Source: Acidobacteriota bacterium (GTDB taxonomy: Bacteria > Acidobacteriota > CAIWXX01). From it: 64,000 nt of DNA. The first letter of the stretch is position 1; the number at the start of each line of letters is the position of its first letter. Of this stretch, positions 16,170 through 35,800 are shown piece after piece. The translations under genes and the position numbers were made by a program. The notes under the pieces are model-generated. The model worked only from the letters and a program-made list of their open reading frames with translations. It had not been told where the DNA came from and searched no databases. The stretch covers positions 96,001-160,000 of the forward strand of contig JBFMAF010000010.1 of NCBI GenBank assembly GCA_040755995.1, given 5' to 3'.

Positions 16170-17069
16170 TCACCTTCCAAAGCGAAATGCGGTGAATTGT
16201 GCGTTCATGCGGCTCCCTTGTCCATTGGTGAACTGAGTCATGCACGAGTCATCGGTGTAGTCCATGAAGTTGTGGATCGGGTCCCGGCCGCGGCTCGGGC
16301 AGGTATTGCGCCGTTTGGGGCAGCCGAATGCAGGGGATTTCTCAGCCGGCGTGTCCGAGACGTAGTCGCCTTTGCCTCGGCACCCACCTTGGAACGTGTG
16401 ATATAGACCCATCCAGTGGCCCACCTCGTGTGTGCCGGTGTCGCCGAGATTGTACGGCGCAGCAGTGCCGCCGGGCAGAGAGGAGTACAAGAGAACGACT
16501 CCATCCATCGTCGGGTTCCCGCCGTAGCTCGACGGAAACGTGGCCCACCCGAGAAGATCCTGTTTGAGAGACGCCGTGTAGATGTTCAGGTCGTCGGCAG
16601 AGCCCTGCCGGAGCGCGGCCTTCGCGCTCGCCTCCTCAGGAGTCCCCATCCCCATGTTGAACCACGTGGGGTTCGTTTGACGGTCGATCGTGACCAGGTT
16701 GAAGATCCATCCGTATGGCCCGTACGCGGCGTTCAAGACCGCGATCTGAGCCAGAACCTGGCTATCCGGGACATCGCCGTTCGGGATGCCGGGGCCCTTG
16801 CTGATCACGTGGAAATAGACGTCGACGACTCCTCCCAGCTGCGCGTCTGCGATATCCAGACCCATCTCCCTCAGCACCTCGGCCGCCAGTGCTTCGTCAC
16901 GCGTGATTCTCGCCGGGTCAATGTACGTTCCGCAGCGGCGCCACCCGGTCCCGGCGAGCTCGCCGGTGGTTTCGTCAGCCTCGGCGTATCCCAAAGTGCC
17001 CGGCACGGCCGCCAGAGCACATGCAACCCCAATCGTCAGCGTAGCCATCCGAATACTTCGTCCGGTCAT
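16170..17069 (-). CDS. Secreted M43 (pappalysin/ulilysin-type) zinc metalloprotease
   Basis: Signal peptide, RCGT cysteine-switch, HEVGHWMGLYHTF, NFMDYTDD. Confidence 0.92.
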   Translation of the reverse strand: MTGRSIRMATLTIGVACALAAVPGTLGYAEADETTGELAGTGWRRCGTYIDPARITRDEALAAEVLREMGLDIADAQLGGVVDVYFHVISKGPGIPNGDVPDSQVLAQIAVLNAAYGPYGWIFNLVTIDRQTNPTWFNMGMGTPEEASAKAALRQGSADDLNIYTASLKQDLLGWATFPSSYGGNPTMDGVVLLYSSLPGGTAAPYNLGDTGTHEVGHWMGLYHTFQGGCRGKGDYVSDTPAEKSPAFGCPKRRNTCPSRGRDPIHNFMDYTDDSCMTQFTNGQGSRMNAQFTAFRFGR

Positions 17070-17238: not shown

Positions 17239-17580
17239 TCACAGATCGAGGACAAGTCTCAAACCGTCCTCAACGCTTTGGAGCAGACGGACAGGCAGCT
17301 TTCCGACACATTCTGTGAGAAACCGTTGGTCGACCGTGAGCACTTGGGACACGTTCGCCACAGAGTCACTTGGTAGATCTGTTTGTGCGCTCGGCAGGAG
17401 GACATTACCAGGGGCGTCTGCGTGCTTGAGGTTCGTAGTGATGGCAACCACGACCACGGTTCCAATCTTGCTGCGGTTGAAGGACTCGGCTTGCACGACG
17501 AGGACCGGTCTACGATGACCGGGGCCAGAGCCCGCAGGTTCCGGCAGAGATGCCCACCAGATCTCCCCGCGGTGGATCAC
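17239..17580 (-). CDS. mazF: MazF/PemK family endoribonuclease toxin
   Basis: RGEIWWASL, RRPVLVVQ, VVVAITTN, SVANVSQVLTVD; GTG start overlaps antitoxin stop. Confidence 0.93.
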   Translation of the reverse strand: MIHRGEIWWASLPEPAGSGPGHRRPVLVVQAESFNRSKIGTVVVVAITTNLKHADAPGNVLLPSAQTDLPSDSVANVSQVLTVDQRFLTECVGKLPVRLLQSVEDGLRLVLDL

Positions 17581-17816
17581 CGATTGCCCGCCCGTGCGAT
17601 GGTCAGATTCTGAAGCTCAGCTAGGACGGGATCGACGCTCGATGGCTCGATCCCGTACACGCGGTCCAGGGCCTCCGTGATACGCTCGCTGCTGCGCGCC
17701 CTCACGAATTCATTGAGCGCGTCTGCATAGAGCTTGCTGCGCGAAATGTGCATCCGCCTCGCCAGACCTTCCGCGGCCTTGAAAAGCGGAGTCGGTATGG
17801 AAACTGCTGTCTTCAC
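17577..17816 (-). CDS. Ribbon-helix-helix antitoxin (MazE6/ChpI-like)
   Basis: (M)KTAVSIPTPLFKAAE...SRSKLY...ITEALDRVY; directly upstream of and overlapping mazF. Confidence 0.85.
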   Translation of the reverse strand: MKTAVSIPTPLFKAAEGLARRMHISRSKLYADALNEFVRARSSERITEALDRVYGIEPSSVDPVLAELQNLTIARAGNR

Positions 17817-17822
17817 GGCCAG

Positions 17823-17852
17823 AGTATAACCCGAGTTATACCAGAATGTCAA
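17823..17852 (-). promoter_or_regulatory. TA promoter with palindromic operator
   Basis: TTGACA-N18-TATACT on minus strand; GTATAAC-N4-GTTATAC palindrome at 17824-17841. Confidence 0.8.
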
Positions 17853-17909
17853 GCCGCACACTCCGGCCGTCCGACCGCGGCAGCCGCGCGAACCTGCTCG
17901 CCCGGGCGG

Positions 17910-20484: not shown

Positions 20485-21393
20485 TCATCGCTGTGCGGCC
20501 CCGTCGCAGCCCCCGTTGATGATCCTGTGATGCTCGATCGCCTGCTCATCGGACGACGTGGCATCCGCCGGTGCGGATGCGCCAGCAGCGGAGGTCCAGG
20601 TCGCTTGCCACGTGCCGGACTGATACAGGTACCCGCACGGGTAGATGTATAGGCCCGTGTACGCATAGGTTCCCGTGGCTGTGGTGGCCGAGGTGAACTG
20701 CCCGGTGAAGCTGAATGTGCTGCCGGTGAAGCTAAACGAGCCGCCGCTGATGCTGCCTGGGCCCGGCACCGTGGTCTCCGTCCATCCCCAGCAGGACCCG
20801 AAGTTGAAATCGGTCTTCAGCGTGAAGGTCGAGTATTGCGTCCCGCCCGAGAGCACTAGAAAGGACATCGGCTGCGAACGGCTGGTCGTGCCGGTCCAGG
20901 TTCCGGCCGTCGGCACTATGCCCCCACCCGAGCAGTAGATACTCCAGGTGAACGAGGACCACGAAGCCTTCATCTTGTACTTCCTCGGGCCCCACTGCGT
21001 TGTGCCACATGCATCGACCGCGTAGAACGTGTACCTCCGTCCAGCCTCCAGACGCAGCCGCCTCACCGTGTAGGTACCTGGTCCAGTTGCATACCCCTTG
21101 TACTTCCCATCAATGTAAAGCAGCACCTTTCCCCCACAAACGCAGTTCCAATTCAAGATCTTCCAATAGAACTTGATGGAGTTCGCGTCCTGGGGAGACG
21201 TCGCCATCGAATCCTCGCCGCCGACCAATTGCAGCTCCTCGCCGCCAGCCTCCAACCCTCGCACGGCGATCGCTGATTCCAGGGCTTCGCCCGGTACGAG
21301 ATCGTTTCCTCGAGTAGCCGCCGGAGCGGCGGCGCAGACTGCCGCAAGTCCCATGACGAACGCGGCGACTATGAATGCCATTCTCGACCTCAT
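20485..21393 (-). CDS. Secreted hypothetical protein, two Cys/aromatic-rich beta domains
   Basis: AAAGGAGG RBS then ATG 21393; signal peptide (MRSRMAFIVAAFVMGLAAVCAAA); basic beta domain, then Thr/Ser/Gly-rich domain (AGTWTGTT...SGTWQA). Confidence 0.75.
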   Translation of the reverse strand: MRSRMAFIVAAFVMGLAAVCAAAPAATRGNDLVPGEALESAIAVRGLEAGGEELQLVGGEDSMATSPQDANSIKFYWKILNWNCVCGGKVLLYIDGKYKGYATGPGTYTVRRLRLEAGRRYTFYAVDACGTTQWGPRKYKMKASWSSFTWSIYCSGGGIVPTAGTWTGTTSRSQPMSFLVLSGGTQYSTFTLKTDFNFGSCWGWTETTVPGPGSISGGSFSFTGSTFSFTGQFTSATTATGTYAYTGLYIYPCGYLYQSGTWQATWTSAAGASAPADATSSDEQAIEHHRIINGGCDGAAQR

Positions 21394-21511
21394 CGAATCC
21401 TCCTTTCGGGCAACCCACATCTGGACCGTCGACTTCCAACGGGGCAGTCCCACTGAACCTTCAGGTTGGTTTATTACCGTAATCCCATGTCGCGGGGCTG
21501 TTGGCACCGTA

Positions 21512-22282
21512 CTACCTGCCGCAAACGTTGTCAAACGATGCCTTGGTCCCGCTGCCGGAGACAATAAGCCAGACTGTGTCCTGGTCCGGAACAGTGCTGG
21601 TTGTCCCAGAGATCTTGTAGACCTCTTTCCCATTGATTCGCAGCGCAACTCTGTTCGACGCGTAGACAATCCCGATCTTCGTTACGGCCCCGTAGTTCTT
21701 GGCTCCGGCGACGCACCAGCTGTAGCTGTTCCAGTCATAGAAGAGCATGCCGGCGCGCCCGTCTCTCATGAGCACTCCGCCGAACCCATCAATTCTGTAG
21801 CTTCCGATCTGGAACACAGGGCCTTCGTCGTTGAACGGCTGGAAGCCCATCCAGTTGTTATTGACCTTTTTCGCCATGTTCATTTCGAGGGTGAAGAACT
21901 TGCCCGGGTTGAACGTGTGAGCGATGCGGCCGAGGTAGCTCCCGCTGGTGCTGGTCAGCTCCAGCCGCCCTCCCACCATCTTCCTGGATGCATAGCTGGT
22001 TGTCCAGCCCGGCAGCGCTGGCGCGCTGAAGGTCTCAGAGAGCCATGAGCAGCCGGCGGGGTAGGCCGGCTCGGCGAATGGAGCGTCCAACGCCGGTTCG
22101 CCGATCATGACCAGCTCGTCATGTGCCTCGATTGCCGCCAGCATGACCTGCCGGGCATCCGCCAGCGAACCCTTCCTGGGCCAGTGCCGATCGCGCGAGT
22201 GAATGTTTCCGGGCGCAATGACCAAGATTGCTCCGAGCGAAAGCACGATCGAACCCGTTAACAATAGCCTTGTCGACCACAT
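21512..22282 (-). CDS. Secreted hypothetical protein with LamG/ConA-like beta-sandwich
   Basis: AAAGGAGG RBS then ATG 22282; hydrophobic N-terminus; SETFS..LPGWT, VALRINGK, ASFDNV. Confidence 0.75.
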   Translation of the reverse strand: MWSTRLLLTGSIVLSLGAILVIAPGNIHSRDRHWPRKGSLADARQVMLAAIEAHDELVMIGEPALDAPFAEPAYPAGCSWLSETFSAPALPGWTTSYASRKMVGGRLELTSTSGSYLGRIAHTFNPGKFFTLEMNMAKKVNNNWMGFQPFNDEGPVFQIGSYRIDGFGGVLMRDGRAGMLFYDWNSYSWCVAGAKNYGAVTKIGIVYASNRVALRINGKEVYKISGTTSTVPDQDTVWLIVSGSGTKASFDNVCGR

Positions 22283-22419
22283 AACGAACCTCCTTTGTTT
22301 GAAAGACGAGTCCAATACATCCGTTCCGGTGTGGACCAGTTGCTCGGCCTCCGGACGATTCCCTATGGTCCGATGCCCCGGCCCACTTTTCATTCCATTT
22401 ACTCCCTGGTTCATTCAGT

Positions 22420-22446
22420 AGTGGGATCTCGACAGAAACATTTCAT
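22420..22446 (-). promoter_or_regulatory. Putative ECF sigma-dependent promoter (copy 1)
   Basis: ATGAAATG-TTTCTGTCGAG-ATCCCACT; boxes and spacing identical to the copy at 23528-23554. Confidence 0.75.
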
Positions 22447-22554
22447 GCCCGGGCGGCATTCGGGTTTCCACAGTCCATTCCGATCGAAGCCAAAGGTGCA
22501 ATGGAAGGGCCGCGACGGCGCGAGGGGAACAGACAGCGAGCCGTCTGGATGCAG

Positions 22555-23511
22555 CTACTGAAGTTGTATCGAGAAGGAGTAGTCGGCTATGCCCTCGAAT
22601 GTGCCGTCGGCAGCCGGTGCACTTACCGTGAGAATGTAGTCACCGGTCTTCAGGGCCGCAGCGGGGATCATGACGGACAGGACTGGCTCCGCGGGAGTCG
22701 CGGCCAGGCGTACCTCCTGGCTCCAGACGCTCGTGCCCTCGGGCGTGGACACAGTCGTGCGATACGAGCTCGTTTCGAGGGCTGGCTCGACCTCGACCCG
22801 TGCCTGAACAAACTGTGTCTCACGATGAACAACGAGCTTCTGCGCTCCGGCTCCGCGCACCAGGGGGACGAGATCGACGCTCACGAATTGAGGCGGTGCC
22901 GCGGCCGGGCCGCCGGCGACGGGGCCCGGGGCAGGAGCATTCTCACCGCTCGGTGACCGCACTTCGCCGGATCCGCCGCCTCTCAGGAGCCCTGCGATCC
23001 TCCGTTCCAGCATACGCTCGTTCTGTTCAGCCCTTTCCTTCTCCGCCACCATGCTCTGATAGCGCACTTCAGCTCGATGATATTCGAAAGCGAGCCATAC
23101 ACAGAGGAGCACCATTCCCGTCGCGAATGACAGCTGAACAACCGGGGTCTGGAGGCGGAGCAGCGCTACAAAGGCCCGCAATATCGATGACAGCCGGGAC
23201 TCAGATGCCGGTTCCCGCGCCGGTCTTTCCGCCTGCGCGGCAGCCCAATCAATCAGAGATCTTGCGAAGCGCACTCTCTCCATTCGCGCCGGCGTCGTGA
23301 GGAAGTTCTTCTCGAACAACACCTTCTTGTCCGCCGTAAGCTCATCTTTCACGTATTGGTCGATGAGCTCGTCCTCGACGACGCTGATCCGCTCGAACAG
23401 CGCATCATCGGTCATGTAGCGCTTTTCGAGCTCGATCTCTTCATCCGCCGGCAGACTCCTGAGGAGGTAGTCAACGATGAGTTCGTCTTCCATTCTGCTC
23501 GTCCGGCTCAT
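22555..23511 (-). CDS. Putative anti-sigma factor: cytoplasmic helical domain, single TM, coiled coil, extracytoplasmic Ig-like domain
   Basis: DYLL..L..DEE.ELE.RY...EDELIDQYV N-terminus; TM LSFATGMVLLCVWLAF; beta-rich C-terminus (LKTGDYILTV); directly after ECF sigma. Confidence 0.7.
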   Translation of the reverse strand: MSRTSRMEDELIVDYLLRSLPADEEIELEKRYMTDDALFERISVVEDELIDQYVKDELTADKKVLFEKNFLTTPARMERVRFARSLIDWAAAQAERPAREPASESRLSSILRAFVALLRLQTPVVQLSFATGMVLLCVWLAFEYHRAEVRYQSMVAEKERAEQNERMLERRIAGLLRGGGSGEVRSPSGENAPAPGPVAGGPAAAPPQFVSVDLVPLVRGAGAQKLVVHRETQFVQARVEVEPALETSSYRTTVSTPEGTSVWSQEVRLAATPAEPVLSVMIPAAALKTGDYILTVSAPAADGTFEGIADYSFSIQLQ

Positions 23512-23527
23512 AAGGCTCCCTTATTCC

Positions 23528-23554
23528 AGTGGGATACTCCCCGAATCATTTCAT
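23528..23554 (-). promoter_or_regulatory. Putative ECF sigma-dependent promoter (copy 2), overlapping sigma stop codon
   Basis: ATGAAATG-ATTCGGGGAGT-ATCCCACT, 16 nt upstream of the anti-sigma ATG. Confidence 0.75.
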
Positions 23555-24154
23555 CAGTGCTTCAATGCACGCCCGGATCTCTTCCTTGATCCGGAGTATC
23601 CGAAGTCTCAGTGCATTGATCGAGACGCCCAACCGGCGGGCGAGCTCGTTTCTGGCCTCGATCTTGGCGCGCCCTCTGTCGCCGTAATAAGCGATGACCA
23701 GGTCGCGCTCCTGCTGAGCCAGTCGGCCCATGCACTCGTTCAGAGACTCGATCCTTTGTTCCTTGCTGAGTCTCTCCGCCTCCTCCGCCTCCTGCTCGAC
23801 CGGGTTGACCGCAGGTTCCACCAGACAGCCCGCGCCTCCGGTCTTCGCCGTGGCGTCCCAGTACTCGTGCAGCACGTTTCTGGCTACGCCAAGGAAGTAG
23901 GTCGCAGGCTGATCGGCCATGATGACAAGGCCGTCGTTCAGCCTGGCTGCCACACGGAAGAACACTTCGTCGGCCAGGTCGGCGGCACTTGGGCAGCCCT
24001 TCCACTCGAGAAACCGGATCAGCTTCCTGCGAATAAGCAGGTACTGCTCGCCGGCGCGATCCGGGTCCGGATGGAGCTGCGACATCAAGAGGCGCAGCGA
24101 GTCTGCGGTGAGAGCCCTCGCTCGCTTCCGCGGCTCCGAGGCCTCACCCGTCAT
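23546..24154 (-). CDS. ECF-type RNA polymerase sigma factor
   Basis: Region 2 (AADLADEVFFRV, YFLGVARNV) and region 4 (CMGRL...ERDLVIAYY, ELARRLGVSINALRLR). Confidence 0.85.
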   Translation of the reverse strand: MTGEASEPRKRARALTADSLRLLMSQLHPDPDRAGEQYLLIRRKLIRFLEWKGCPSAADLADEVFFRVAARLNDGLVIMADQPATYFLGVARNVLHEYWDATAKTGGAGCLVEPAVNPVEQEAEEAERLSKEQRIESLNECMGRLAQQERDLVIAYYGDRGRAKIEARNELARRLGVSINALRLRILRIKEEIRACIEALMK

Positions 24155-24262
24155 GGTTGTCCGCGGCCCGGCCTACAGGCGTCGAGCCGGCAGTGCTATA
24201 CAGCGCGTCATGCACTACGCCGACTCGTTGAAGTCCTTGCGGACTTATGACCCGCTGTACAG

Positions 24263-27200
24263 TCAATTCCAGTCGCCCTGGAGCACGAACGCGGCCCAGT
24301 AGAACGGCTGGGACCATCGCGGGCTCTTCAGCATCCCGATCTGAGCGGCGCGGAGGGCCGCCGCTGGAGGCAGGCGCCGCGTGCCCAGCATGGCGTCGTA
24401 GAAGCGGTTCATGAGCTCCGCGGTCGCGGTATCCTCCACCTTCCACAGACTCGCCAGTACACGTTTCGATCCCGCATACATGAAGCCTCTGGTAAGGCCC
24501 ACAAGACCCTCTCCCTTGATCTCCTTGCCGAGCGCCGTCTGGCAGGCGCTCAGCACGACGAGGTCCGCCGCGAGCCTCATGTTGTAAATGTCATAGAGCT
24601 TGAGGAATCCGTCCTGAGGGCCGCCCTTCGGATCGACGAGTGAAAGGAGGACGCCCGACAGCTCAGGGGTGACATTGTCGAGGATCCCGTGCGTCGCGAA
24701 GTGCACAATTCTATATTGGGAGATTTCGTCGCTCATGGCGGTCCCCCTGCTGGCATCGAAGTCCATAGCCAGCTTCCGGAGGGCGGCGGGTACTGAACGA
24801 GTGATGGACTGAGCTTCTCGGCGGGTAAAAGGGAGTCGTGGAATCGCGACCGAGCCCTGCCCCAGGCCAATATCGCGCACCGCGCGTCCGACGCCGAAGG
24901 GGGACACAGGCGTCTCAACGTTGCCGGTGGATGCTGATGCCCCCACGCGAGGATCACCGCGCTCGAACACGGGATCGGCGAACACCGCTACCGTCTTCGA
25001 CGCCGGCTTCCGATCGCCCACTTCTCGTCTCAGCTCGGCCAAGGCGGATGCTGAGGGAAGGTTCAGCACTTCGCATCGGGCGACGAGCGGTTCATACGCC
25101 TGGCGCGGCCCTGCGCCCTCGGATGGCGGCAGGGGCAGAGCGGCGAATGGCACGTACTGCAGCGCTCCGTCAGCGACTACCAGCAGCCGTCTGGGGCTCA
25201 GCTTCGCCAGTGGGCCAAGGATCATCTGGCTCAGGCTGACGGCAGCGGTGCGAAAGTCCAAATCCGCTCGTTCGATGCGCGCGCGCCTCGCCGTCAAGCT
25301 CTCGCCGTCGACTTGCCGATTGCGTTCATTCAGCAGACGATAGACGTCGCGAGCCGAGGCCTCGATCTCCGCGCGTCCCGGCAGCCTGTAGGAATCCAGT
25401 CGATCGGGCCCGACGACCCAGCAGTAGCTTTCCTCATCGCCCAGCGCGTATTCCAGGAGGAACGCGCCTTCCCCGGTGATTTCTTCTTGAATCTGCCCGA
25501 CTCCGAGGGGCGCGGGCTGCGTCAGGGCAGCGTAATGAGGGCTCTTCTCGCGTATCTCCGCCTCAACCTGCTGGTACTCATGCGTGAGTGATGCGATCTC
25601 GCTCGCAAGGGCGGCGGCCTGCGCCGGCGTGTGTTTTCCGCTGAGGAGGCGTATCTGGCGTTCGGCCTTGGCACTCAGCCGCTCCCTCAGAGACCTCTCC
25701 TTCTGCAGGAGCGCTTCATCGACGCCCGCGCGTATGTCGATGCTGCCCTCGGCAAGCATCTCCAGGAGGCTCCGCGCTCGAGCGCGCTCGCTGGCCTCCA
25801 GTGCCTCCCGCTCATGTCCCTCCTCGGTCTTCTGCCGATTCATCTCCATGAGTAGTCGTATATAGAACTCGTAGTATCGCTGGGCCGTGGCGAAGTAGGA
25901 CGCGCGGAGCTTCTCCGTTGCCAGTCCTGCCCGGATTGACTCGACGATATCGAGGGCGGCCTCGATATCGCGGCGCGCTTCGGATAGCTTGCCGGCGGTG
26001 AACTCCAGCTCGGCGAGTCCCCAAAGCGTCTCAGCCTCGCCGCCCCGGTCGGCGACGTCGCGTCGCACGGACAGAGCACCGTTCAGATATTCTGTGGACT
26101 CCTGGACATGGCCGACGGACTTCTCGGCCATGCCCATGTTGTGGAGGGTTGCGGCCTCTCCAAACTTGTCCCCGGTTTGAATCCGCAGCGGGAGTGCCTG
26201 GTTGTAATACTCCATCGCCTTCTGCGGCTGGTCCGCCTTCGCATAGGCGCTTCCGATGTTGTGCAGAACGTTCGCCTCTTCCGACCGGTCCTGCACGGAC
26301 CTGGCTAGCGACAAGGCCTTATCGTAGTAACCCAGCGCTTCCTGCGTGTCTCCCAGACTCACCCGAACGGCTCCCATGTTGTTCATGACTACGGCCTGGC
26401 CCCCACGATTCCCTGCCGCCTCCCAGAGCGCCTGGGACCGCTTGTAGTAGCTCAGCGCCGTCTCAGTCTCTCCGACTGAGTTGTACAGATCGCCGACGTT
26501 GTTCAGGACTGATGCTTCAGTGTCCTTGTCGCCGACGTCCCTAAGTAGACCGAGAGCCGCGTTGTAATCATCGAGCGCCGCCTGTATCTCGTCCAATGAT
26601 GACAATGCGGCGCCGATGTTCGACAGCGTTATGGCCTCGCCCCTCTTGTCGTTCAGGGCACGGCGCAGGGGCAACGCCTGGTTATGATACTCGAGTGCCT
26701 TGCGCTTCTCGCCCAACGAATCATAGACCGCCGCGATATTGTTGAGCGTGATCACTTCACCCATGGCTTCCTTCGCTTCGCGGACGATGGCCAAGACCCG
26801 TGTGTAGCATTCGAGCGCCTTCGCGTTCTCGCTGACAGACCAGTAGACAAGGCCCAGGTTGTTGAGCGCCCCGGCCTCTCCCATCTTGTCCCCACGCGTC
26901 CTCAGTATCGCCACAGACCGATTCAGGCTCTCGATCGCCCGGTCTTTGTTCCCAAGTGCGTTATTGATCAGGCCGATATTGGCGAGCATCTCCGCTTCGC
27001 CCGCTTCGTCCTTCAATGCGCGAATGATGTCGATCGCCTTCGTGAAGTGGTCTAGTGAGCTCGGCATGTCGCCGCGGAGGTACGAGATCTCGCCCAGCTT
27101 GGAGAGTGTGAGCGCGCACTTCTGATCTTCGGCGGCTGCGCGGAAGTGCTTCAGGGCTCCGTCGTACTTTCCTGCCGCATTCCCGAGCGATTCAGCAGTC

Positions 27201-27730
27201 ATCCCTGCCTGCAACCGTTGCGCTTCTGCGAAATCCCGTTCTCCCGCGACCAGGTCACGATCTCGAGGTGAGGCCTTCCGGATCTCATCCAACCTCACTT
27301 CATAGCGTCCAGCCGATGCCGACGCGTCCGGAAGGCGAATCTCCAATCTGTAGACCCCTGGCAGGTCTACGATCATCGACAGCGCGGCTGTGCCCTCGAC
27401 TTCGCCGGCACGATCAGTCCGCGCCACGCTCGCGCCGTCCGGGGCGCGGACTTCGAGCTCGACGTCAACGCCGCGCCGATCGACAACAAGGCGCAGATAT
27501 TGACCCGCCGTCGCCCGGATCTCGTAGAAATGCGACTGTCCTCCACTGATCTCCCTTGCCACCGGCGTGCCGATCCCCAATTCGGTCGCTTCCACCGAAG
27601 GGCCCGGCGCTGCGGGACTTGTGTTGCTCGCGAACAGAGCATGCGAACCGCAACCCGGCGGCGAAGTGAGAATGCTCCCAAGTGAGAGCGCGGCCGTCAA
27701 GGCGAAATGGATGCCATTGCTTGTCTTCAT
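24263..27730 (-). CDS. Exported TPR-CHAT (caspase-like) protease with PPC-like domain
   Basis: Hydrophobic N-terminus from ATG 27730; PPC-like domain; about 10 TPRs (EA..LNNIG..Y..LG); LLVVADGALQYVPF, VHFATHG and VVLSACQT (His-Cys dyad), SLWKV, YWAAFVLQG. Confidence 0.93.
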   Translation of the reverse strand: MKTSNGIHFALTAALSLGSILTSPPGCGSHALFASNTSPAAPGPSVEATELGIGTPVAREISGGQSHFYEIRATAGQYLRLVVDRRGVDVELEVRAPDGASVARTDRAGEVEGTAALSMIVDLPGVYRLEIRLPDASASAGRYEVRLDEIRKASPRDRDLVAGERDFAEAQRLQAGMTAESLGNAAGKYDGALKHFRAAAEDQKCALTLSKLGEISYLRGDMPSSLDHFTKAIDIIRALKDEAGEAEMLANIGLINNALGNKDRAIESLNRSVAILRTRGDKMGEAGALNNLGLVYWSVSENAKALECYTRVLAIVREAKEAMGEVITLNNIAAVYDSLGEKRKALEYHNQALPLRRALNDKRGEAITLSNIGAALSSLDEIQAALDDYNAALGLLRDVGDKDTEASVLNNVGDLYNSVGETETALSYYKRSQALWEAAGNRGGQAVVMNNMGAVRVSLGDTQEALGYYDKALSLARSVQDRSEEANVLHNIGSAYAKADQPQKAMEYYNQALPLRIQTGDKFGEAATLHNMGMAEKSVGHVQESTEYLNGALSVRRDVADRGGEAETLWGLAELEFTAGKLSEARRDIEAALDIVESIRAGLATEKLRASYFATAQRYYEFYIRLLMEMNRQKTEEGHEREALEASERARARSLLEMLAEGSIDIRAGVDEALLQKERSLRERLSAKAERQIRLLSGKHTPAQAAALASEIASLTHEYQQVEAEIREKSPHYAALTQPAPLGVGQIQEEITGEGAFLLEYALGDEESYCWVVGPDRLDSYRLPGRAEIEASARDVYRLLNERNRQVDGESLTARRARIERADLDFRTAAVSLSQMILGPLAKLSPRRLLVVADGALQYVPFAALPLPPSEGAGPRQAYEPLVARCEVLNLPSASALAELRREVGDRKPASKTVAVFADPVFERGDPRVGASASTGNVETPVSPFGVGRAVRDIGLGQGSVAIPRLPFTRREAQSITRSVPAALRKLAMDFDASRGTAMSDEISQYRIVHFATHGILDNVTPELSGVLLSLVDPKGGPQDGFLKLYDIYNMRLAADLVVLSACQTALGKEIKGEGLVGLTRGFMYAGSKRVLASLWKVEDTATAELMNRFYDAMLGTRRLPPAAALRAAQIGMLKSPRWSQPFYWAAFVLQGDWN

Positions 27731-27952: not shown

Positions 27953-28801
27953 CTAGATCGCCTGGCGGTAGTCGCCCGGTGTTCGCCTCGTGATCTTCTT
28001 GAAGACACGGCAGAAGTAGGCCGGATCGCGGTAGCCGCACTGCCGGGCTACCTCCTCTACTCGCAGCCGGTACGTCTTGAGAAGGTACTTGGCTCTGTCG
28101 ACGCGCACATAGGCCAGGTAGTCGCAGAACTTCATGCTGCCGTGCACCCGGAAAAGCCGCGAGAGGTGGTTTGGACTGATGCCGAACTCGGCGGCCGCGC
28201 TGTCCCTCGTGATTACGTGCTGGTAGTTGTGCTGGAGATAGCCGCAGATCTCATCCATCAATTGCCTGCCCTTGCTCTTTCTCGTGAGCGACGGCTCGGC
28301 CACCATGTCGCGCAGACAGAACAGGAGCGCGCGGACGAGATCGGGGAGCGCTGCATGGGGCGCAGCTTTCGGCTGCAGCTCGATCATCGCGGCGAGCACC
28401 TTCTCGGCAGGCCCGCCGAGCGGCTGAGGGAGGGCAAGCTTGTCGGCACGGAGAGTGCCCCGGCGCGCACGGCGAGCTGTGACAACACTGATGCCGATCT
28501 GTCTCCTTCCGAAGAGGAACGCAATCACTCGCACCGGGTGCCGCCACGTGGGCCGGTTCCAGCAGTTCGGAGGCGCGAACACCGCGTCACCCGGGGCTGG
28601 CGCGATCAGCGTCGGCTTGCCCGCTCGTTCGATTTCCATCTCGTATCTCCCCTGTAGCGGTAGCTCCAATCTTGCGAAGTTGACCACGTGACTGAGGAGG
28701 GGAGGCGAGGTGAGGCGGCCGCACACGTAGACATGGCGCAGTGGACTGCGCAGGATTCGATCCAGGGTGTCGATCACGAGGCGCTGCAAGCTCATGGCCA
28801 C
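27953..28801 (-). CDS. AraC family regulator, YijO-like
   Basis: VNFARLEL, PGDAVFAPPNCWN..W, LFGRRQIG; C-terminal double HTH (ISPNHLSRLF, CGYRDPAYFCRVFKK); divergent from PTS operon. Confidence 0.9.
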   Translation of the reverse strand: MAMSLQRLVIDTLDRILRSPLRHVYVCGRLTSPPLLSHVVNFARLELPLQGRYEMEIERAGKPTLIAPAPGDAVFAPPNCWNRPTWRHPVRVIAFLFGRRQIGISVVTARRARRGTLRADKLALPQPLGGPAEKVLAAMIELQPKAAPHAALPDLVRALLFCLRDMVAEPSLTRKSKGRQLMDEICGYLQHNYQHVITRDSAAAEFGISPNHLSRLFRVHGSMKFCDYLAYVRVDRAKYLLKTYRLRVEEVARQCGYRDPAYFCRVFKKITRRTPGDYRQAI

Positions 28802-28952
28802 TCACGAATGTTACGATTATCCAGTGAATAATACATCTTTCCTCTTGCCGGCGATGCGGGCCCGTAGGATGATTCGTGCGCCTGGATGTGGCTCGCGGTC
28901 TCCAGGCGCGTGAGGAGAGTGGACGCGCGACCGCGGGGAGGGAGCAAGAACG

Positions 28953-30029
28953 ATGTTACAGCAGCACAAGCAGTACCTGCTCACCGGGGTGTCGTATGTG
29001 GTGCCGTTCATCGCATGCGGCGGCATCCTGATCGCGAGTGCGATCGCGTTCGCGCCTATGACGGCCGCGGGGCCGGATTTCTCTCATTCGCCTGTGCTCG
29101 AACTCGTCGTTGACATCGGTTCGGCGGCCTTCGCCCTGGCCATGCCCGTTCTGGCCGGATTCATCGCACACGGGATCGCCGGCAGGCCGGGGTTGGTTCC
29201 AGGCATGATCGGCGGCTTCATCGCCAACCAGCCGTTCGCCGTAACGGTAGGCGGTCAGACCCAAGGGGTGAAGGCCGGCTTCCTCGGAGCCCTACTGGCA
29301 GGGCTTCTGGCAGGGCACCTGGTCAATCTCGTCAAGAAGGCTCCGATCCCGAAGTTCGCCCGGCCGGTCATGCCCATCATTGTGATCCCGGCGCTCACCG
29401 GAGTCATGATCGGCGTGGTGATGTTCAAGTTCGTGGGTGAACCGGTCGCCTCGCTCATGGCGTCGCTGAGCCGTGGCCTCGACACGATGGGGCAGGGCAA
29501 CGCTGTCCTGCTTGCCGCCGTGCTCGGTGCGATGATCGCGTTTGACATGGGGGGACCTGTGAACAAGGCGGCCTTCTTCTTCGGTGCCGCAATGATTCAG
29601 AACAACCCGCCGAACTATACCATCATGGGTTGTACGGCCGCCGCCATATGCACACCTCCACTCGGCCTCGCTCTCGCCACTCTGGTCCACCGCAAGCTCT
29701 GGACGGAAGAGCAGCGCGAGTCCGGGATCGCGGCGCTGGGCATGGGAATGATCGGCATTACCGAGGGTGCGATCCCGTTCGCCGCCGCCGACCCGGTGCG
29801 CGTCATCCCAAGCATCATGCTGGGCTCGATGGTGGCCGCCGTGATCGCCATGCTGGGGGCCGTTGGCGACCACGCTCCACACGGCGGCCCGATCGTATTG
29901 CCCGCCGTGGTCAACCGCATGCCGTACGTCGTGGCGATCGTGGCCGGAACGGTGGTCACCGCTTTGACAATCAATCTCCTCAAGCTCCTGACCGAAAACA
30001 ATCGAGACGCAAAGGATCAACGAGGATGA
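28953..30029 (+). CDS. PTS fructose/mannose-family EIIC (FrwC-like)
   Basis: LLTGVSYVVPF, FDMGGPVNK, ICTPPLG, GITEGAIPFAAADP, APHGG. Confidence 0.93.
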   Translation: MLQQHKQYLLTGVSYVVPFIACGGILIASAIAFAPMTAAGPDFSHSPVLELVVDIGSAAFALAMPVLAGFIAHGIAGRPGLVPGMIGGFIANQPFAVTVGGQTQGVKAGFLGALLAGLLAGHLVNLVKKAPIPKFARPVMPIIVIPALTGVMIGVVMFKFVGEPVASLMASLSRGLDTMGQGNAVLLAAVLGAMIAFDMGGPVNKAAFFFGAAMIQNNPPNYTIMGCTAAAICTPPLGLALATLVHRKLWTEEQRESGIAALGMGMIGITEGAIPFAAADPVRVIPSIMLGSMVAAVIAMLGAVGDHAPHGGPIVLPAVVNRMPYVVAIVAGTVVTALTINLLKLLTENNRDAKDQRG

Positions 30030-30319
30030 GAATCGTTGCAGTCACGGCCTGTCCCACCGGCATCGCTCACACTTACATGGCGGCCGAGCAGCTTGAGAAG
30101 ACGGCAAAGAGGCTCGGTCACATCATCAAGGTCGAGACCCAGGGCGCCATGGGAATCGAGAATGAGCTCCGGCAGAGCGACATCGACGCCGCAGAGGTGG
30201 CCATCTTTGCAACAGACATCGCGGTCGAGCAACCGGAACGCTTCGCTCGAATCCGCACTGTCACGGTCCCCGTGCAGTTGGTGCTCAGAGATCCTGCAGC
30301 CGTCTTCGACAAACTGTGA
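30026..30319 (+). CDS. PTS fructose-family EIIB (FrwB-like)
   Basis: MRIVAVTACPTGIAHTYMAAE, VETQG; ATGA overlap with EIIC. Confidence 0.93.
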   Translation: MRIVAVTACPTGIAHTYMAAEQLEKTAKRLGHIIKVETQGAMGIENELRQSDIDAAEVAIFATDIAVEQPERFARIRTVTVPVQLVLRDPAAVFDKL

Positions 30320-30335
30320 GCGCACCGGGGCAGTC

Positions 30336-32855
30336 ATGCCGCTTGAGATTCGTTTCAACTGTCAACTGGCCGGCGGCGTGCACGCGCGTCCGGCGAGTGC
30401 TCTGGAAGAGCTGACGGCGCGCTTCCGATCGGAATTCTCCCTCGTCAACGAGCGGAACGGCTGCCGCGCCAACGCACGGAGTGTGCTGGCACTAGTGGCG
30501 TCCGATATCCGACTGGACGACGCTTGTCGCCTGGAGATAGCCGGGCCTGACGAACAGGAGGCCCATGCGGAGATGGCGAGGTTTCTGCGAGAACGTTTCC
30601 CGTGTTGCGACAACGACATTCCAACGGTCCAACCGCCGGGGGAGGAATTCAGCCTGCCGCCTGACCTCCGGGAAAGCACCATGACGTACTGGCGCGCCAC
30701 GCCTGCCGCCGCCGGGATCGGTCTCGGACGTATTGTTGAAATCGAGCCCTTCGAGCTACCCGAGACGCTGGCGAACATGCGACCCTTGGGCGCCGAGCAG
30801 GAGCGGAGGAGGATCGAGGAGGGGCTGTATGCGCTGAACGCAGCACTGGCCGAGCAAGCTGCGCGAATGCCTTCCGATGCGGCCGCCGGCATTGTCGCTG
30901 CGCATCAGGCAATCGCGCGGGATCCCGAGTTTCGGGCCAGCCTGATCGAGGCCGTCACCGCAGTCGGGCTGTGCGCTGCCCGTGCCGTCGCCGAGTCCGA
31001 AGCACACTTCAGCCGGATGTTGATGGCCACCTCCAGCGAGCTGCTGCACCAGCGCGTCCTAGATGTCCAGGACGTGTGCCGCCAGTTGCTGGACAAGATC
31101 TACGGCGAGGCCGCTCGGAGATCCGAAGCTCCACTCACCGAAGATGCCATATGCCTCGCCGAAAGCCTAACGCCGAGCCAGCTCCTGGCGCTGGACCGGC
31201 GCTATCTCAAGGGATTGGTTCTCTTCCAGCCAGGAACGACGTCCCACGTGCACATCCTTGCGCGTTCTTTCGGCATCCCCACACTGACCAGAGCCGTGGG
31301 GCTCACCGGCCGGCGCATCGCCGGCGAGCTTGCCGTGGTCGACGCCGAGATCGGACTTCTCGCCACGAACCTGGACGAGACGGCGCGACGGTACTACGCC
31401 ATGGAGCAGGACCGCCTGCGGCGTCGTCAGGCCCGGCTGCTCCGGCTTGCCGAGGGACCTGGCGACACAAGTGACGGCCAGCCTCTACAGATCGCCGCAA
31501 ACATAAGCTCGGCCGACGAGGCAGCCTGCGGCGTCGCCGCGGGAGCCGATGGTGTGGGGCTCTTCCGCACAGAGATGCTCTTCATGAACCGGGATCGGCC
31601 CCCCTCCGAGGGAGAGCAGTTCGAGGAGTACCGCAGGGCTCTGTACGCGGCAGCTGGCAAGCCCGTCATCATTCGCACACTCGACGCAGGCGGTGACAAG
31701 CCGCTGCCATTTCTCAACCAGCCGGTCGAGGCAAACCCGTTCCTCGGCTGCCGCGGCGTGCGGCTCTACCCGCGGCACGAGGCACTCTTTCGAGCTCAAG
31801 TCCGCGCCCTCCTGCGCGCGTCCGTGTTCGGGCCGCTGAAGATGCTCGCCCCAATGGTTTCTCACCTCGATGAAGTCCGGTGGATGAGACGAATAGTCGA
31901 GGAGGAGTCGGCGCGGATTCCCGAGACAGGTCAGCAGGGCAAACGTCACGTGCCGCTGGGAGTCATGCTGGAAGTGCCATCGATCGCATTCGCTCTGGAT
32001 CACTTCTGCCGCGAAGTGGACTTCTTCAGCATCGGGTCCAACGATCTGCTGCAGTATTTCCTGGCCGCCGATCGCGCCAACCCCGGCGTGTCTGGGATCT
32101 CGGATCCGTTGAGCCCCGGCTTTTTGCGCCTGCTCAAGAAGGCGGTCGACGACGTTCACACGCATGGGAAGCGGATTGGATTGTGCGGCGAAATGGCGAT
32201 CTCAGTCCGCTATCTGCCTCTGCTGGTCGGGCTCGGCCTTGACGAGATCAGTGTGGCCGTCCCGGCCGTGGCCGAAATCAAAGCAGCGCTCGCTCGCCTG
32301 TCGTCCAGCGACTGCTCGGAACTTCTCACCGCGGTTCTGCGCTCTCCGACGGCGCGTGAGGCCGCTGAATGTCTCGATCGGTTTCACCAGCAGTCGTGCG
32401 ACCCGATCGTGGACGAGAATCTGATTCTGATGAGCTCCGGCAGCCGCACGAAGGCCGAGGCGATCAAAGAGATCGTGGACAACTTCTTTGTGCAAGGACG
32501 AACCGATCGCCCGCGAGACGTCGAGGTCGCAATCTGGCAGCGCGAGTCAGTCTACTCGACCGGTCTGGGATATGGGATAGCGATTCCACACTGCAAGTCC
32601 GATTCGCTGCGGGCGGACACGATGGGGCTGCTCAGGCTCGATCAGCCCGTAGATTGGGGCTCCGTGGATGGCCAGCCGGTGAAGCTTGTGATCCTTCTCG
32701 GGCTTCGCGAATCCAGTCCCAAGGAGACTCACATGCGCATCTTCAGTCGCCTGGCCCGGCGCCTGATGCACGAAGATTTCAGGGCCCGCCTTATCGAGCC
32801 GTGCGATCCGGCATCGACTCTGAATGCGCTTCAGGAAGAACTGGAACTGGCGTGA
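30336..32855 (+). CDS. Multiphosphoryl transfer protein HPr-EI-EIIA (PtsA/FrwA-like)
   Basis: HPr GVHARPA; EI TSHVHILAR, GLFRTEM, RTLDAGGDK, ANPFLGCRG, FSIGSNDL, GLCGEMA; EIIA STGLGYGIAIPH. Confidence 0.93.
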   Translation: MPLEIRFNCQLAGGVHARPASALEELTARFRSEFSLVNERNGCRANARSVLALVASDIRLDDACRLEIAGPDEQEAHAEMARFLRERFPCCDNDIPTVQPPGEEFSLPPDLRESTMTYWRATPAAAGIGLGRIVEIEPFELPETLANMRPLGAEQERRRIEEGLYALNAALAEQAARMPSDAAAGIVAAHQAIARDPEFRASLIEAVTAVGLCAARAVAESEAHFSRMLMATSSELLHQRVLDVQDVCRQLLDKIYGEAARRSEAPLTEDAICLAESLTPSQLLALDRRYLKGLVLFQPGTTSHVHILARSFGIPTLTRAVGLTGRRIAGELAVVDAEIGLLATNLDETARRYYAMEQDRLRRRQARLLRLAEGPGDTSDGQPLQIAANISSADEAACGVAAGADGVGLFRTEMLFMNRDRPPSEGEQFEEYRRALYAAAGKPVIIRTLDAGGDKPLPFLNQPVEANPFLGCRGVRLYPRHEALFRAQVRALLRASVFGPLKMLAPMVSHLDEVRWMRRIVEEESARIPETGQQGKRHVPLGVMLEVPSIAFALDHFCREVDFFSIGSNDLLQYFLAADRANPGVSGISDPLSPGFLRLLKKAVDDVHTHGKRIGLCGEMAISVRYLPLLVGLGLDEISVAVPAVAEIKAALARLSSSDCSELLTAVLRSPTAREAAECLDRFHQQSCDPIVDENLILMSSGSRTKAEAIKEIVDNFFVQGRTDRPRDVEVAIWQRESVYSTGLGYGIAIPHCKSDSLRADTMGLLRLDQPVDWGSVDGQPVKLVILLGLRESSPKETHMRIFSRLARRLMHEDFRARLIEPCDPASTLNALQEELELA

Positions 32856-32878
32856 ACCTATATCGAAGGGGAGCAACA

Positions 32879-35800
32879 ATGATGCAAACCAAAGCCCGCA
32901 CGATTGGACTCGGGCTGACGCCCCTCATCTGCCTGCTCGCTTCGACGCTGGCTGCCCGCGCGGCGGTTGCGGAGGAGCGGCCCCTGCTGACGAAGGTCGA
33001 TCTTTCCAAAGACAAGGTGCTCTACGTTGTAGCCTATGCGCACCTCGACACGCAGTGGCGTTGGGACTACGCCACGACAATCGACGAGTTCATCCGGAAC
33101 ACCCTGGACGACAACTTCGGTCTCTTCGCGAAGCACCCGGACTACATCTTCAACTTCACCGGCGCAGCGCGCTACAACATGATGAAGGAGTACTATCCCG
33201 CAAGGTTCGAGAAGATGAAGGAGTACGTACGGCAGGGCCGCTGGCACGTGTCGGGATCTTCGGTTGACGAGGGCGACGTGAATGTTCCTTCACCCGAGAG
33301 TGTCATCCGGCAGATCCTCTACGGCAATATCTTCTTCCGCCGCGAGCTGGGTGTTGAAAGCACCGACTACATGCTGCCGGACTGCTTCGGCTTCCCCGCA
33401 TCTCTGCCGTCGATCTTCGCGCATTGCGGCCTGACAGGTTTCTCAACGCAGAAGCTCTCGTGGGGCTCGGCCGCCGGCGTCCCGTTCTCGATCGGCGTGT
33501 GGGAAGGGCCGGACGGCCGCGGTGTTGTTTGTGCTATGAACCCGGGGGACTACGCGGCCGGCATCAGCAGCCGTCTCGACACCGACCGGAGCTGGGTCAG
33601 ACGCGTGGACGAAAACGGCGAGAGATACGGCGTGTTCGCCGACTATCATTATTACGGCGTCGGTGACGAGGGTGGAGCCCCGGAGGAGAAGGACGTCGAA
33701 ATGCTCGAAGCCAGCCTCCGCAACCCCGACGCACAGGTCCGTGTGCTGCCGGCGGCCTCCGACCAACTCTACAAGGATCTCGCACCGGAACAGGTCCAGC
33801 GGTTGCCTCGGTACAAGGGCGACCTGTTGCTCACCGAGCACTCTGCCGGCAGCATCAGCTCCCAGGCCTACATGAAGCGATGGAACCGGAAGAACGAACA
33901 GCTCGCCGATGCGGCCGAACGGGCCGCGGTGCTCGCCGACTGGCTCGGCGCTCAGCCCTACCCGGTCGAGAAGCTTCAGCGCGCGTGGGCAAGGGTCCTC
34001 GGGAGCCAGTTCCACGACATCCTCCCCGGCACCAGCCTCCCGCGATGCTACAACTTCGCGTGGAACGACGAGGTTCTCGCCCTGAACCACTTCGCGGCCG
34101 TGCTGCAGGCATCGGCGGGTGTAACCTCACGCGCGATGGACACGCGTGCCGAGGGACAACCGCTTGTGGTTTACAATCCACTTTCAATTGAGCGAGAGGA
34201 CGTGGTGGAAGCGGTGGTGACGTTCGCCGGCGGGGCGCCGCAGGCGGTGCGCGTGTACGATCCGCAGGGCCGCGAGATCCCGTCGCAGATTCAGTCGAAG
34301 GCGGGGGACATGGTGACTGTGCTGTTCCTGGCTCACGTCCCGCCCACCGGCTTCGCCGTGTACGACGTACGCCCATCCAATCGCGCGAGTGCGCTCCGCA
34401 CCGGGTTGAGCGCATCAGGGCGCATACTCGAGAACGCGGCCTACCGGGTGACCGTCAACGAAGCCGGCGACATCAGCAGCGTAGTGGACAGGCAGAATCG
34501 CAACCGCGAGCTCCTGGCCCGTCCCGCGCAGCTCCAATTCCTGCACGAGCAGCCGAAGCGGTGGCCCGCATGGAACATGGACTGGACCGATCGACAGAAG
34601 TCTCCGGCCGGTGTAGTTGGCGCCCCCGCGCAGATCCGGCTTGTCGAGAACGGCCCGGTGCGCGTCGCGCTGGAAGTCGTCCGATCCGGTCGCGGATCGA
34701 TCTTTACCCAACATATCCGTCTGGCCGCCGGCGATGCGGGCCGGCGCTTGGAGATCAAGACGAGCATCGACTGGCAGTCCCAATCGTGCTCGTTGAAGGC
34801 GGCCTTCCCGCTGACCGTCCGAAATCCGCAGGCAACCTACAACTGGGGCCTCGGCACCATCGCGCGCGGCAACAACGACCCGAAGAAATACGAAGTCCCC
34901 TCGCACGAGTGGTTCGATCTCACGGACATCAGGGGTGACTACGGAGTTACTGTTCTCGAGGACTGCAAGTTCGGTTCCGACAAGCCCGATGACCAGACGG
35001 TTCGACTCACGCTGCTGTACACACCAGGAGTCCGCGAGTACTATCAGGACCAGGGAACGCAGGACTGGGGCCGCCACGACGTGCTCTATGCCCTCTACGG
35101 GCACAGCGGCGATTGGCGGACGGGTAACAGTGAATGGCAGGGCAGGCGCCTGAACCAGCCGCTCGTCGCTTTCCAGGTGCCTCCGCACGCGGGGCCACTG
35201 GGCCGAAAGTTCTCGTTGATGCAGGTCAGCACGCCGGAAGTGGACGTGCGTGCCTTCAAGAAAGCCGAAGCAGGCGGCGCTTTCGTCGTGCGCTTGCAGG
35301 AGCTGTACGGCCGGGCCGCCAGGAACGTCGGCGTCTCGTTCGCTGCACCGGTCGTCTCGGCCGAGGAAGTGGACGGCCAGGAGCGACGCATCGGCTCGGC
35401 ATCGGTGCGCGACGGCAAGCTGATACTGGATATGACCGCGTTCAGCCTTCGCAGTTTCGCCGTGGTTCTGGCCAGCCCGCTGGCGAGCCTGGCAGCGCCG
35501 GCGTTCCAGCCGGTAAGCATCCCGCTCGACACAGACGTGGTGAGCGCCGACAGCAATCGCAACGACGGCGACTTCGCATGCGGCATGACGATCCCGGCCG
35601 AAGAGCTTACTGCGACGATCGAGACGGAGGCCGCAACATTTGCGCTCGGCAGCACCACACCAGGCGCGTCGAACGCCCTTGTGTGCCGCGGCCAGCGGAT
35701 CGCGCTGCCTTCCGGCGGCTTCAACCGCATCTATATCCTCGCTGCCGCCGCCGAGGACGCCGACGGCGAGTTCGCGGTTGGTGCGCAGAAGACGCTGGTG

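Follow-up and report, generated by a model that had tools for sequence, protein, structure and literature searches.

Can a caspase-like protease outside the cytoplasm pass a signal to the genome by cutting the membrane-bound anti-sigma encoded next to it? The question is raised by a locus of five minus-strand genes in a 64-kb stretch of DNA (hereafter the window; 64,000 nucleotides) from an Acidobacteriota bacterium (GenBank assembly GCA_040755995.1, here genome G000; contig JBFMAF010000010.1, positions 96,001 to 160,000). In order of transcription, the genes encode a tetratricopeptide repeat (TPR)-CHAT protease, a sigma factor of the extracytoplasmic function (ECF) type, a single-pass anti-sigma-like protein and two predicted secreted proteins, S1 and S2. 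A first-pass annotation, made from the letters alone, had read this locus as a protease-triggered signalling system, and all five co-oriented genes were confirmed where it had placed them (Table 1). We judge it somewhat probable that the first three genes (the triad) form an envelope-to-gene switch, a split and zinc-free system of the DdvA/DdvS kind, in which the protease would cut the anti-sigma after Arg219. This reading is built on sequence and comparison, namely the linkage of the three genes, the catalytic dyad, the signal-like N-termini of the protease family, the near-invariant Arg219, an Arg-Gly kept in natural fusions, and a promoter-like motif present twice in the locus. The earlier system-level idea is thereby partly supported and stays the leading hypothesis, with its cut site corrected and a promoter added.

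Composition and conservation of the triad

A profile of the sigma family was built from 14 sigmas picked by sigma similarity alone and was run on 301 genomes of the phylum, where it located 85 places in 38 genomes. All 85 loci were taken with flanks of ~7-8 kb, and three weak loci outside the profile list were excluded. An anti-sigma-like head was found directly downstream of the sigma gene at 81 of the 85 loci; these heads comprised 59 with an immunoglobulin (Ig)-like outer domain, 6 intact TPR-CHAT fusions and 16 others (2 frameshifted fusions included). A separate CHAT gene of more than 500 codons lies in the flank of 45 of the 59 Ig-type loci. These triads come from 25 genomes and 14 families; two gene orders account for 27 and 15 of them, 42 co-oriented triads in all, and the other 3 have opposite orientation. 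Since the CHAT frame is within 500 nt of the sigma/anti-sigma pair in 40 of the 45 triads, the linkage is not a matter of chance; the counts themselves are descriptive, because related loci are kin and not independent. The neighbourhood survey that the first-pass annotation had suggested thus finds the triad conserved, at 45 of 85 loci. A search for related loci with the sigma sequence found none, and the sigma alignment gave no usable stretch.

The genome of the window holds a second triad of the same sigma family on contig C55 and three further triads with other sigma and anti-sigma types, and a CHAT gene lies within 1.2 kb of 5 of its 62 sigma-70-family places. In the C27 triad, a zinc-type head is joined to the same Ig domain with its Arg; the outer domains of the C37 and C36 triads are of other kinds, and there Arg-Gly or Arg-Ser follows the transmembrane segment (TM; by eye). 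Two CHAT proteins of this genome (C18:69349-74978; C47:12288-15170) carry a C-terminal hydrophobic segment and have no sigma nearby, and the one on C18 sits between two similar secreted Cys-rich repeat proteins. At locus L025 (L025:4335-9150; L059 is alike), a family sigma follows a long TPR protein (in L025 a Ser/Thr kinase-TM-TPR protein, by eye) and is followed by an Ig-less anti-sigma; the same sigma family is possibly wired to a kinase there.

The CHAT domain of the window protease spans residues 831-1153, with TPRs N-terminal of it, and the His-Cys dyad reported in the first-pass annotation is intact (H1014 in HFATHG; C1063 in LSACQT), as it is in 55 of 56 CHAT domains of the family, the single miss being a frameshifted copy. 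By domain and dyad, the protein is a CHAT protease (PF12770; clan CD) with predicted proteolytic activity. A structure model of residues 376-1155 (pLDDT 86) gave Csx29 as its top fold match (Z 31.2; rmsd 5.8; 537 aligned) and also matched DdvA (Z 21.8; rmsd 8.1; 527 aligned) and separases, and a phmmer search of the single CHAT domain against the PDB returned no matches. A hydrophobic stretch near the start codon was found in 42 of 45 full-length neighbouring CHAT frames, compared with 3 of 45 control segments from inside the TPRs and 9 of 85 from sigmas; export of the protease is likely. A PPC-like beta domain (window protease: PPC E 0.0012, below cut-off) is present in 34 triads and missing in 11 of the 45, so that it is not an obligatory sensor; the earlier proposal of a sensing TPR/PPC region loses its PPC part to that extent.

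The sigma factor is a divergent and short ECF-type protein with sigma2 and sigma4 only; the earlier assignment is borne out through the family profile (Table 1). The anti-sigma-like protein of the window has no Pfam or NCBIfam match of its own, and zf-HC2 was matched in 26 of 40 family members. Its domains are a zinc-free helical head (residues 1-95), a TM (~124-142), a helical stalk, a Gly/Pro linker and an Ig-like domain (208-318), and in the structure model (pLDDT 87) the head is helical, TM and stalk form one long helix, and a linker of low confidence leads to a beta-sandwich, in agreement with the earlier description of a single-pass protein with an anti-sigma-type head and an Ig-like tail. 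One hydrophobic segment was found in 143 of 149 homologues. Fold searches with the outer domain returned generic Ig-like matches only (best Z 8.3; rmsd 2.7; 97 aligned), and profile matches to RslA and RsrA were weak (E 0.3). The head (window 23227-23511, minus strand) consists of two tandem repeats of ~38 residues without zinc ligands. The motif HxxxCxxC was found in none of the 149 homologues, and the window head contains neither Cys nor His. By its head, its position one gene after the sigma and its single TM, the protein is likely an anti-sigma of class I (anti-sigma domain/zinc-binding anti-sigma, ASD/ZAS) type, predicted to bind and inhibit the sigma; the zinc motif that defines the ZAS subtype is absent. 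With 6,368 clusters at 50% identity (E up to 1e-30), the family is a large one, and the scans showed no Pfam model specific to it.

Arg219 and the promoter-like motif

Arg219 is the most conserved column of the anti-sigma-like family, being kept at 54 of 59 loci and in 148 of 149 homologues (the best library matches, retrieved with a profile that contains the Arg). It lies in the context L-x-P-x-x-R, with G, D or S as the next residue in 135 of 149, and the model places it on the loop that joins strand 1 of the Ig-like domain to strand 2. The first-pass annotation had put the cut in the Gly/Pro linker; that site is abandoned, because 145 of 149 homologues have gaps at its columns and nearly all have Arg219. 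An Arg followed by Gly or Ser does occur somewhere in the stalk or linker of 86 of the 149. Arg219 is kept in 44 of 45 loci with a linked CHAT gene and in 10 of 14 without (Fisher p 0.009; kin not independent). Three further CHAT-linked anti-sigmas of the window's genome have Arg-Ser or Arg-Gly after the TM (one by profile, two by eye).

The complex prediction suggested for the protease and the C-terminal domain of the anti-sigma gives weak support: protease residues 376-1155 with the Ig-like domain scored 0.44, compared with 0.00 for the best of three controls, on a score whose mark is reached by 116 of 157 solved pairs and 2 of 215 mismatched ones and at which 18 of the 157 solved pairs only, plus both mismatches, fall at or below 0.60. 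Contacts agreed between runs to at least 86%, with a partner pLDDT of at least 76.

Eight loci fuse the head to TM-TPR-CHAT in one chain (intact: L026, L039, L041, L048, L058 and L078; frameshifted: L024 and L035), and the head of the fusions is the same anti-sigma head (hhalign prob 99.5). An Arg-Gly between the TM and the TPRs is kept in 8 of 8. The fusion profile matches DdvA (E 2.2e-11) and the N-terminal fusion profile does not; for the V129-P140 loop of DdvA, the accessible text names no Arg (PMC11506125). The fusions are zinc-free and occur outside the taxa reported for DdvA-like proteins, which are Myxococcota and one Comamonas only (PMC11506125). In a quick, unfinished sigma tree they fall inside the family in up to 4 places, and a single origin is also compatible.

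What the protease pocket says about Arg is mixed. E972 is invariant (56/56) and, in the model, lies on helix alpha1, the first to follow strand 1 in the core of the protease; at a helix alpha1 position, clan CD proteases specific for Arg carry an acidic S1 residue (PMC4357240), and the two were mapped onto each other via secondary structure only, with no residue-level superposition. HetF, a bacterial CHAT protease, cleaves Arg117-Ser118 (PMC9457339). D1100 had been a candidate for a separase-type S1 aspartate and was rejected, because the published equivalence maps to A1104. The D1100 column has Ser in all 8 fusions where the split forms carry Asp.

A motif search by unseeded expectation-maximisation (EM) was run on 73 regions downstream of the modules, with five near-duplicate loci removed, and yielded a GAAATGTTTT-type motif with a log-likelihood of 139 (98-110 in three shuffles). 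The pattern TGAAATG-N14-CCAC, derived from the site before S1 and its counterpart in genome G001 (a near-identical site in the orthologous locus), has 4 matches genome-wide against ~2 expected, and one of them is the second site in the locus, P1. In a held-out test, the downstream-trained matrix scored ≥8 before the anti-sigma gene in 15 of 76 loci and inside the sigma gene in 1 of 76; at the same threshold it hit 4 of 76 regions before sigma, 3 of 39 before the protease gene and 0 of 39 inside it. The reverse test, which is partly circular, gave 20 of 73 compared with 2 on the opposite strand and 0 inside genes. In the 21 loci with both sites, the two sites of one locus agree at 16.1 of 28 positions and sites of other loci at 12.6 (p 5e-5); within one genome, same-locus sites agree at 11.1 of 16 box positions and others at 6.7 (8 and 16 pairs). 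The simplest reading is that the motif is recognised by the cognate sigma, with P1 and P2 as putative promoters. Word counts alone scarcely rose above shuffles, sigma-70 promoter and terminator scans stayed at chance level, and a de novo search of the regions before the anti-sigma gene captured sigma coding sequence and was uninformative.

Proposed mechanism, alternatives and known relatives

In the mechanism we favour, a signal outside the cell would activate the TPR-CHAT protease, which is likely exported, and the activated protease would cleave the outer Ig-like domain of the anti-sigma, a likely membrane protein, after Arg219. The next cut, in the membrane helix, would be made by a protease of RseP type (M50); M50 genes are present in the genome of the window, one with a Peptidase_M50 match above cut-off, and DdvA lacking its outer domain is degraded by RseP (PMC11506125). 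Once free, the sigma would direct transcription from P1 and P2, of the gene for its own anti-sigma and of the neighbouring secreted genes. With the motif located before the gene for the anti-sigma, rather than before those for sigma and protease, the expected output would be a self-resetting pulse and not positive autoregulation.

Several observations weigh against this mechanism. The signal-like N-terminus that the first-pass annotation had ascribed to the protease holds for the family and is weak in the window copy (best 11-residue Kyte-Doolittle (KD) value 1.87 against a threshold of 2.0), which is one of the 3 misses among the 45 frames, so that its presumed export rests on family evidence; a Shine-Dalgarno-like sequence does stand before its ATG, and the hydrophobic stretch is followed by cleavage motifs of Ala type. 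The N-in topology that we predict for the anti-sigma is favoured by net charge only and not by K+R counts (1.85 vs 2.19). The separase S1 aspartate D2151, equivalent to K670 of Csx29 (PMC9729208), corresponds to A1104 in a column that is mostly Ala (31/56), so that an Arg specificity would not have been inherited from separase, and the residue before the cut made by Csx29 enzymes is Met or Leu (PMC11506125). If the cut falls between strands 1 and 2, the Ig domain may stay associated, with ~76 residues left outside the membrane. Dyad mutants of DdvA had no phenotype, and no self-cleavage was seen (PMC11506125). A long CHAT gene is absent from the fetched flank of 14 of 59 anti-sigma/Ig loci (one of these has a 251-aa CHAT fragment dropped by the length filter and one is at a contig end), and the related genomes G088 and G100, through a large expansion of uncharacterised proteases, hold 60 and 65 CHAT genes, often in tandem, for 6 and 5 sigmas of the family; together these imply that many CHAT proteins have other or shared substrates, although the excess in G088 and G100 would suit convergence in trans just as well. 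The C55 paralogue lacks the motif (4.7 being the best score there), and a wider regulon did not appear as a genome-wide excess (2 matches on four contigs, against 1-8 with column-shuffled matrices). Finally, a role of the Ig domain as inhibitor fits equally, because its invariant Arg loop resembles Arg126 of the gingipain prodomain, a loop that acts as inhibitor (PMC4357240).

This last point carries the alternative that survives best, which we regard as unlikely. Here the Arg219 loop would occupy the S1 pocket of the protease as a slowly cut or uncut inhibitor in a resting complex; a signal would dissociate or reshape the complex, another site-1 protease would free the sigma, the promoter before the anti-sigma gene would restock the inhibitor, and the protease, once free, may have further substrates in the envelope. 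Besides the resemblance of a single invariant Arg on a loop of a rigid domain to the gingipain loop, the weakly predicted protease/Ig complex speaks for it, as does PCi, which is both cut by PCaspase and an inhibitor of it (10.1101/2023.06.23.546230). The ESM Atlas also holds clusters of 104-114 aa proteins that resemble the Ig domain alone, be they stand-alone inhibitors or fragments. Cleavage, on the other hand, is favoured by the near-universal retention of the dyad in linked domains, by the P1' residues, which are mostly small or acidic, and by the Arg-Gly of the fusions, which lies in the linker close to the membrane, so that cutting there would release the outer part as a whole; each of these is compatible with inhibition that precedes cleavage.

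It is rather less probable that the protease is an independent secreted enzyme for processing or defence that was merely co-inherited, with Arg219 structural or ligand-binding and the sigma freed by a general envelope protease or by a ligand on the Ig domain. Natural fusions of protease and anti-sigma head are hard to fit to such independence, as is the recurrence of Arg-Gly or Arg-Ser (by eye) in three types of outer domain among the CHAT-linked anti-sigmas of the window's genome, even though most CHAT genes of that genome lack a neighbouring sigma (one is found within 1.2 kb of 5 of the 14) and some family sigmas adjoin a Ser/Thr kinase-TPR gene with an Ig-less anti-sigma (L025). The retention of the Arg in 10 of 14 unlinked anti-sigmas points the same way as these last two, but the residue is in a loop and not in the core, and unlinked copies could be cut in trans. 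That the window protease is not exported (a degenerate signal peptide) or that the module is decaying, with the family mechanism idle here, is very improbable, since against the weak N-terminal hydrophobicity and the degraded-looking remnants behind the orthologous G001 locus stand three intact frames with the dyad, Arg219, both promoter-like sites, the Shine-Dalgarno-like sequence and the Ala-type cleavage motifs.

The cleavage mechanism has its closest precedent in DdvA/DdvS of Myxococcus xanthus, absent from the first-pass annotation, for which CHAT as a site-1 protease has already been proposed and is unproven (PMC11506125; PMC6061681). Common to both systems are an ECF sigma, an anti-sigma that crosses the membrane once and has a head of class I type, and a TPR-CHAT outside the cytoplasm, with a site-1 step before RseP proposed; the window protease model and the fused relatives of the family match DdvA, as given above. 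They differ in that head, TM and TPR-CHAT form one chain in DdvA, which is split in the window and single in the 6 intact relatives; in the separate protease with its signal-like N-terminus and the Ig-like domain with an invariant Arg on the anti-sigma; and in the CHCC zinc centre of DdvA, for which the window family has no ligands. Furthermore, ddvS is autoregulated, whereas here the motif lies before the anti-sigma and not the sigma gene, and DdvA controls a CBASS/CRISPR island, whereas the cargo of the window locus is secreted proteins.

The first-pass annotation had compared the locus with type III-E Craspase (Cas7-11/Csx29, Csx30 and CASP-sigma; PMC10028731; PMC9729208), which shares the TPR-CHAT protein (Csx29 being the top fold match), an anti-sigma that is cut in its C-terminal part to relieve an ECF-like sigma, and motifs within its own locus. 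Craspase is, in contrast, cytoplasmic, RNA-triggered and CRISPR-bound, cuts after Leu or Met, and acts on a soluble Csx30. Its hallmarks (Cas7-11, Csx30 and Csx31 in linkage with a CRISPR array) were not found at the locus: the contig has no RAMP or cas1 gene (those of this genome are on C11, C26 and C28), none of the 22 best motif matches is near such genes, and no array was seen in the window, where no 24-mer is repeated three times. The claim of CRISPR independence stands, the conserved triad being unlinked to cas genes or an array. Canonical regulated intramembrane proteolysis (RIP; DegS-RseA-RseP-sigmaE and RsiW; PMC10028731, PMC11506125) has the logic that is predicted here, with site-1 outside, site-2 in the membrane and release of a sigma, and differs in that the site-1 enzyme here would be a dedicated, co-encoded clan CD cysteine protease with a large TPR array and not a serine or metallo-protease. 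In ECF54 of Actinobacteria (supplement of PMC7826278), the ECF sigma lies near TPR-CHAT genes and a regulatory role was suggested, but there is no putative anti-sigma, the neighbours are of subtilase and carboxypeptidase-regulatory type, and the motif is GTATCAG / CTCC; the accessible part of that ECF group supplement names CHAT for ECF54 only. In HetF/PatU3 of Anabaena (PMC9457339), a bacterial CHAT protease likewise acts on a specific regulatory substrate, which it cuts at Arg-Ser; the order of domains differs (CHAT, TM, periplasmic TPRs), and there is no sigma factor. In its proposed working the locus resembles DdvA and canonical RIP, yet it is a member of neither DdvA nor Craspase. Our literature search, with few subscription papers within it, found fused and CRISPR forms only and no paper on a split triad of exported CHAT, anti-sigma and ECF sigma.

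Secreted genes, surroundings and significance

S1 and S2, secreted proteins according to the first-pass annotation, have clear hydrophobic N-termini (19-residue KD values 2.3 and 2.5). S1 has 3 relatives only, and its structure matches in the Atlas (concanavalin-A-like or 3-keto-disaccharide-hydrolase-like; TM 0.52-0.59; model pLDDT 0.58) are a weak lead. Relatives of S2 were found in 3 of 301 genomes; its C-terminal domain is also found alongside SLH, Fn3 or PPC domains in other proteins, and an S2 orthologue lies 3.4 kb behind the G001 triad. At that locus (L016:9785-13160), what comes after the promoter-like site looks like degraded remnants, a TPR fragment among them, and the S2 orthologue lies beyond these. 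Paralogues of S2 halves are encoded in the window's genome (C41:83953-85142; C18:39710-39982; C36:21931-22359), and this family of halves is small, secreted and, in the sample, confined to this bacterial family.

S1 is likely the first target gene behind P2, and S2, which has no motif of its own, is possibly co-transcribed with it. Downstream genes vary from locus to locus. An enrichment of secreted genes there was not established (28 of 60, compared with 430 of 1116 in a crude control), and a secreted gene follows 10 of 20 modules with the motif and 15 of 53 without (p 0.10). S1 and S2 are lineage-specific, variable cargo and not conserved parts of the system; of the earlier idea that the system switches on secreted effectors, the promoter-like site before S1 speaks for the switching, and nothing marks the two proteins as effectors. 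No link to defence was seen: PADLOC matched the protease only generically and the other four proteins not at all.

The locus is bordered by a malic enzyme gene and by an AraC/phosphotransferase system (PTS) cluster. The database labels that close relatives carry indicate Acidobacteriota. In the AraC/PTS cluster (window 27953-36187), the PTS genes, which include an HPr-EI-EIIA fusion, lie opposite the AraC regulator, and a long gene there looks glycosidase-like (by eye); no link to the triad was seen. A small gene pair at 17239-17861 (minus strand) has the look of a MazF/PemK-type toxin and antitoxin (by eye), and a secreted-type M43 metallopeptidase is encoded at 16170-17069 (minus strand; Pfam E 1.3e-15). 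The gaps between the five genes, from the protease to S2, are 108, 34, 272 and 118 nt.

Table 1. Features of the locus in window coordinates, followed by further triads of the same genome in contig coordinates
Feature	Position	Strand	Evidence or remark
TPR-CHAT caspase-like protease, 1155 aa	24263..27730	-	Pfam CHAT E 9.8e-70
Protease E972 codon	24815-24817	-	
Protease H1014 codon	24689-24691	-	
Protease C1063 codon	24542-24544	-	
Divergent ECF-type sigma, 202 aa	23546..24154	-	TIGR02937 over residues 55-196, E 1.9e-8 (under cut-off); family profile matches solved ECF sigmas (RpoE/SigE structures), E 4e-6
Predicted promoter P1 (TGAAATG-N14-CCAC)	23529..23553	-	overlaps sigma stop codon, 18 nt before anti-sigma start
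Single-pass anti-sigma-like protein, 318 aa	22555..23511	-	model; zf-HC2 in family; position after sigma
Arg219 codon, candidate P1 (scissile) residue of anti-sigma-like protein	22855..22857	-	near-invariant column
Predicted promoter P2 (TGAAATG-N14-CCAC)	22421..22445	-	before S1
S1, predicted secreted, 256 aa	21512..22282	-	hydrophobic N-terminus
S2, predicted secreted, two-domain, Cys/Thr/Gly-rich, 302 aa	20485..21393	-	hydrophobic N-terminus
Further triad of G000	C27:10560-15934		sigma, single-pass anti-sigma, signal-bearing TPR-CHAT
Further triad of G000	C37:158677-162846		as above
Further triad of G000	C36:194096-199218		as above
Further triad of G000	C55:357074-362270		as above

The idea of a periplasmic CHAT protein as site-1 protease could not advance with DdvA, since one chain there is both enzyme and substrate and no signal is known. 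The split locus offers separate proteins with soluble domains, a predicted scissile bond and a predicted reporter promoter, and the idea therefore becomes directly testable. Tentatively, and short of expecting it, we extend the reading to a large and undescribed class of caspase receptors, in which secreted TPR-CHAT proteins may be ligand-activated site-1 proteases that read a portable Arg bait loop. The bait might be carried on interchangeable anti-sigma ectodomains (Ig-like, TPR or others) or in cis, one-to-one or many-to-one. Genomes with at least 60 CHAT genes might then funnel signals into a few self-resetting sigmas, with DdvA as the fused special case. If the proposed mechanism is true, many secreted TPR-CHAT proteins would gain a function, caspase-like proteases would be active outside the cytoplasm in ordinary signal transduction, and an orthogonal protease-to-transcription switch would be on offer.

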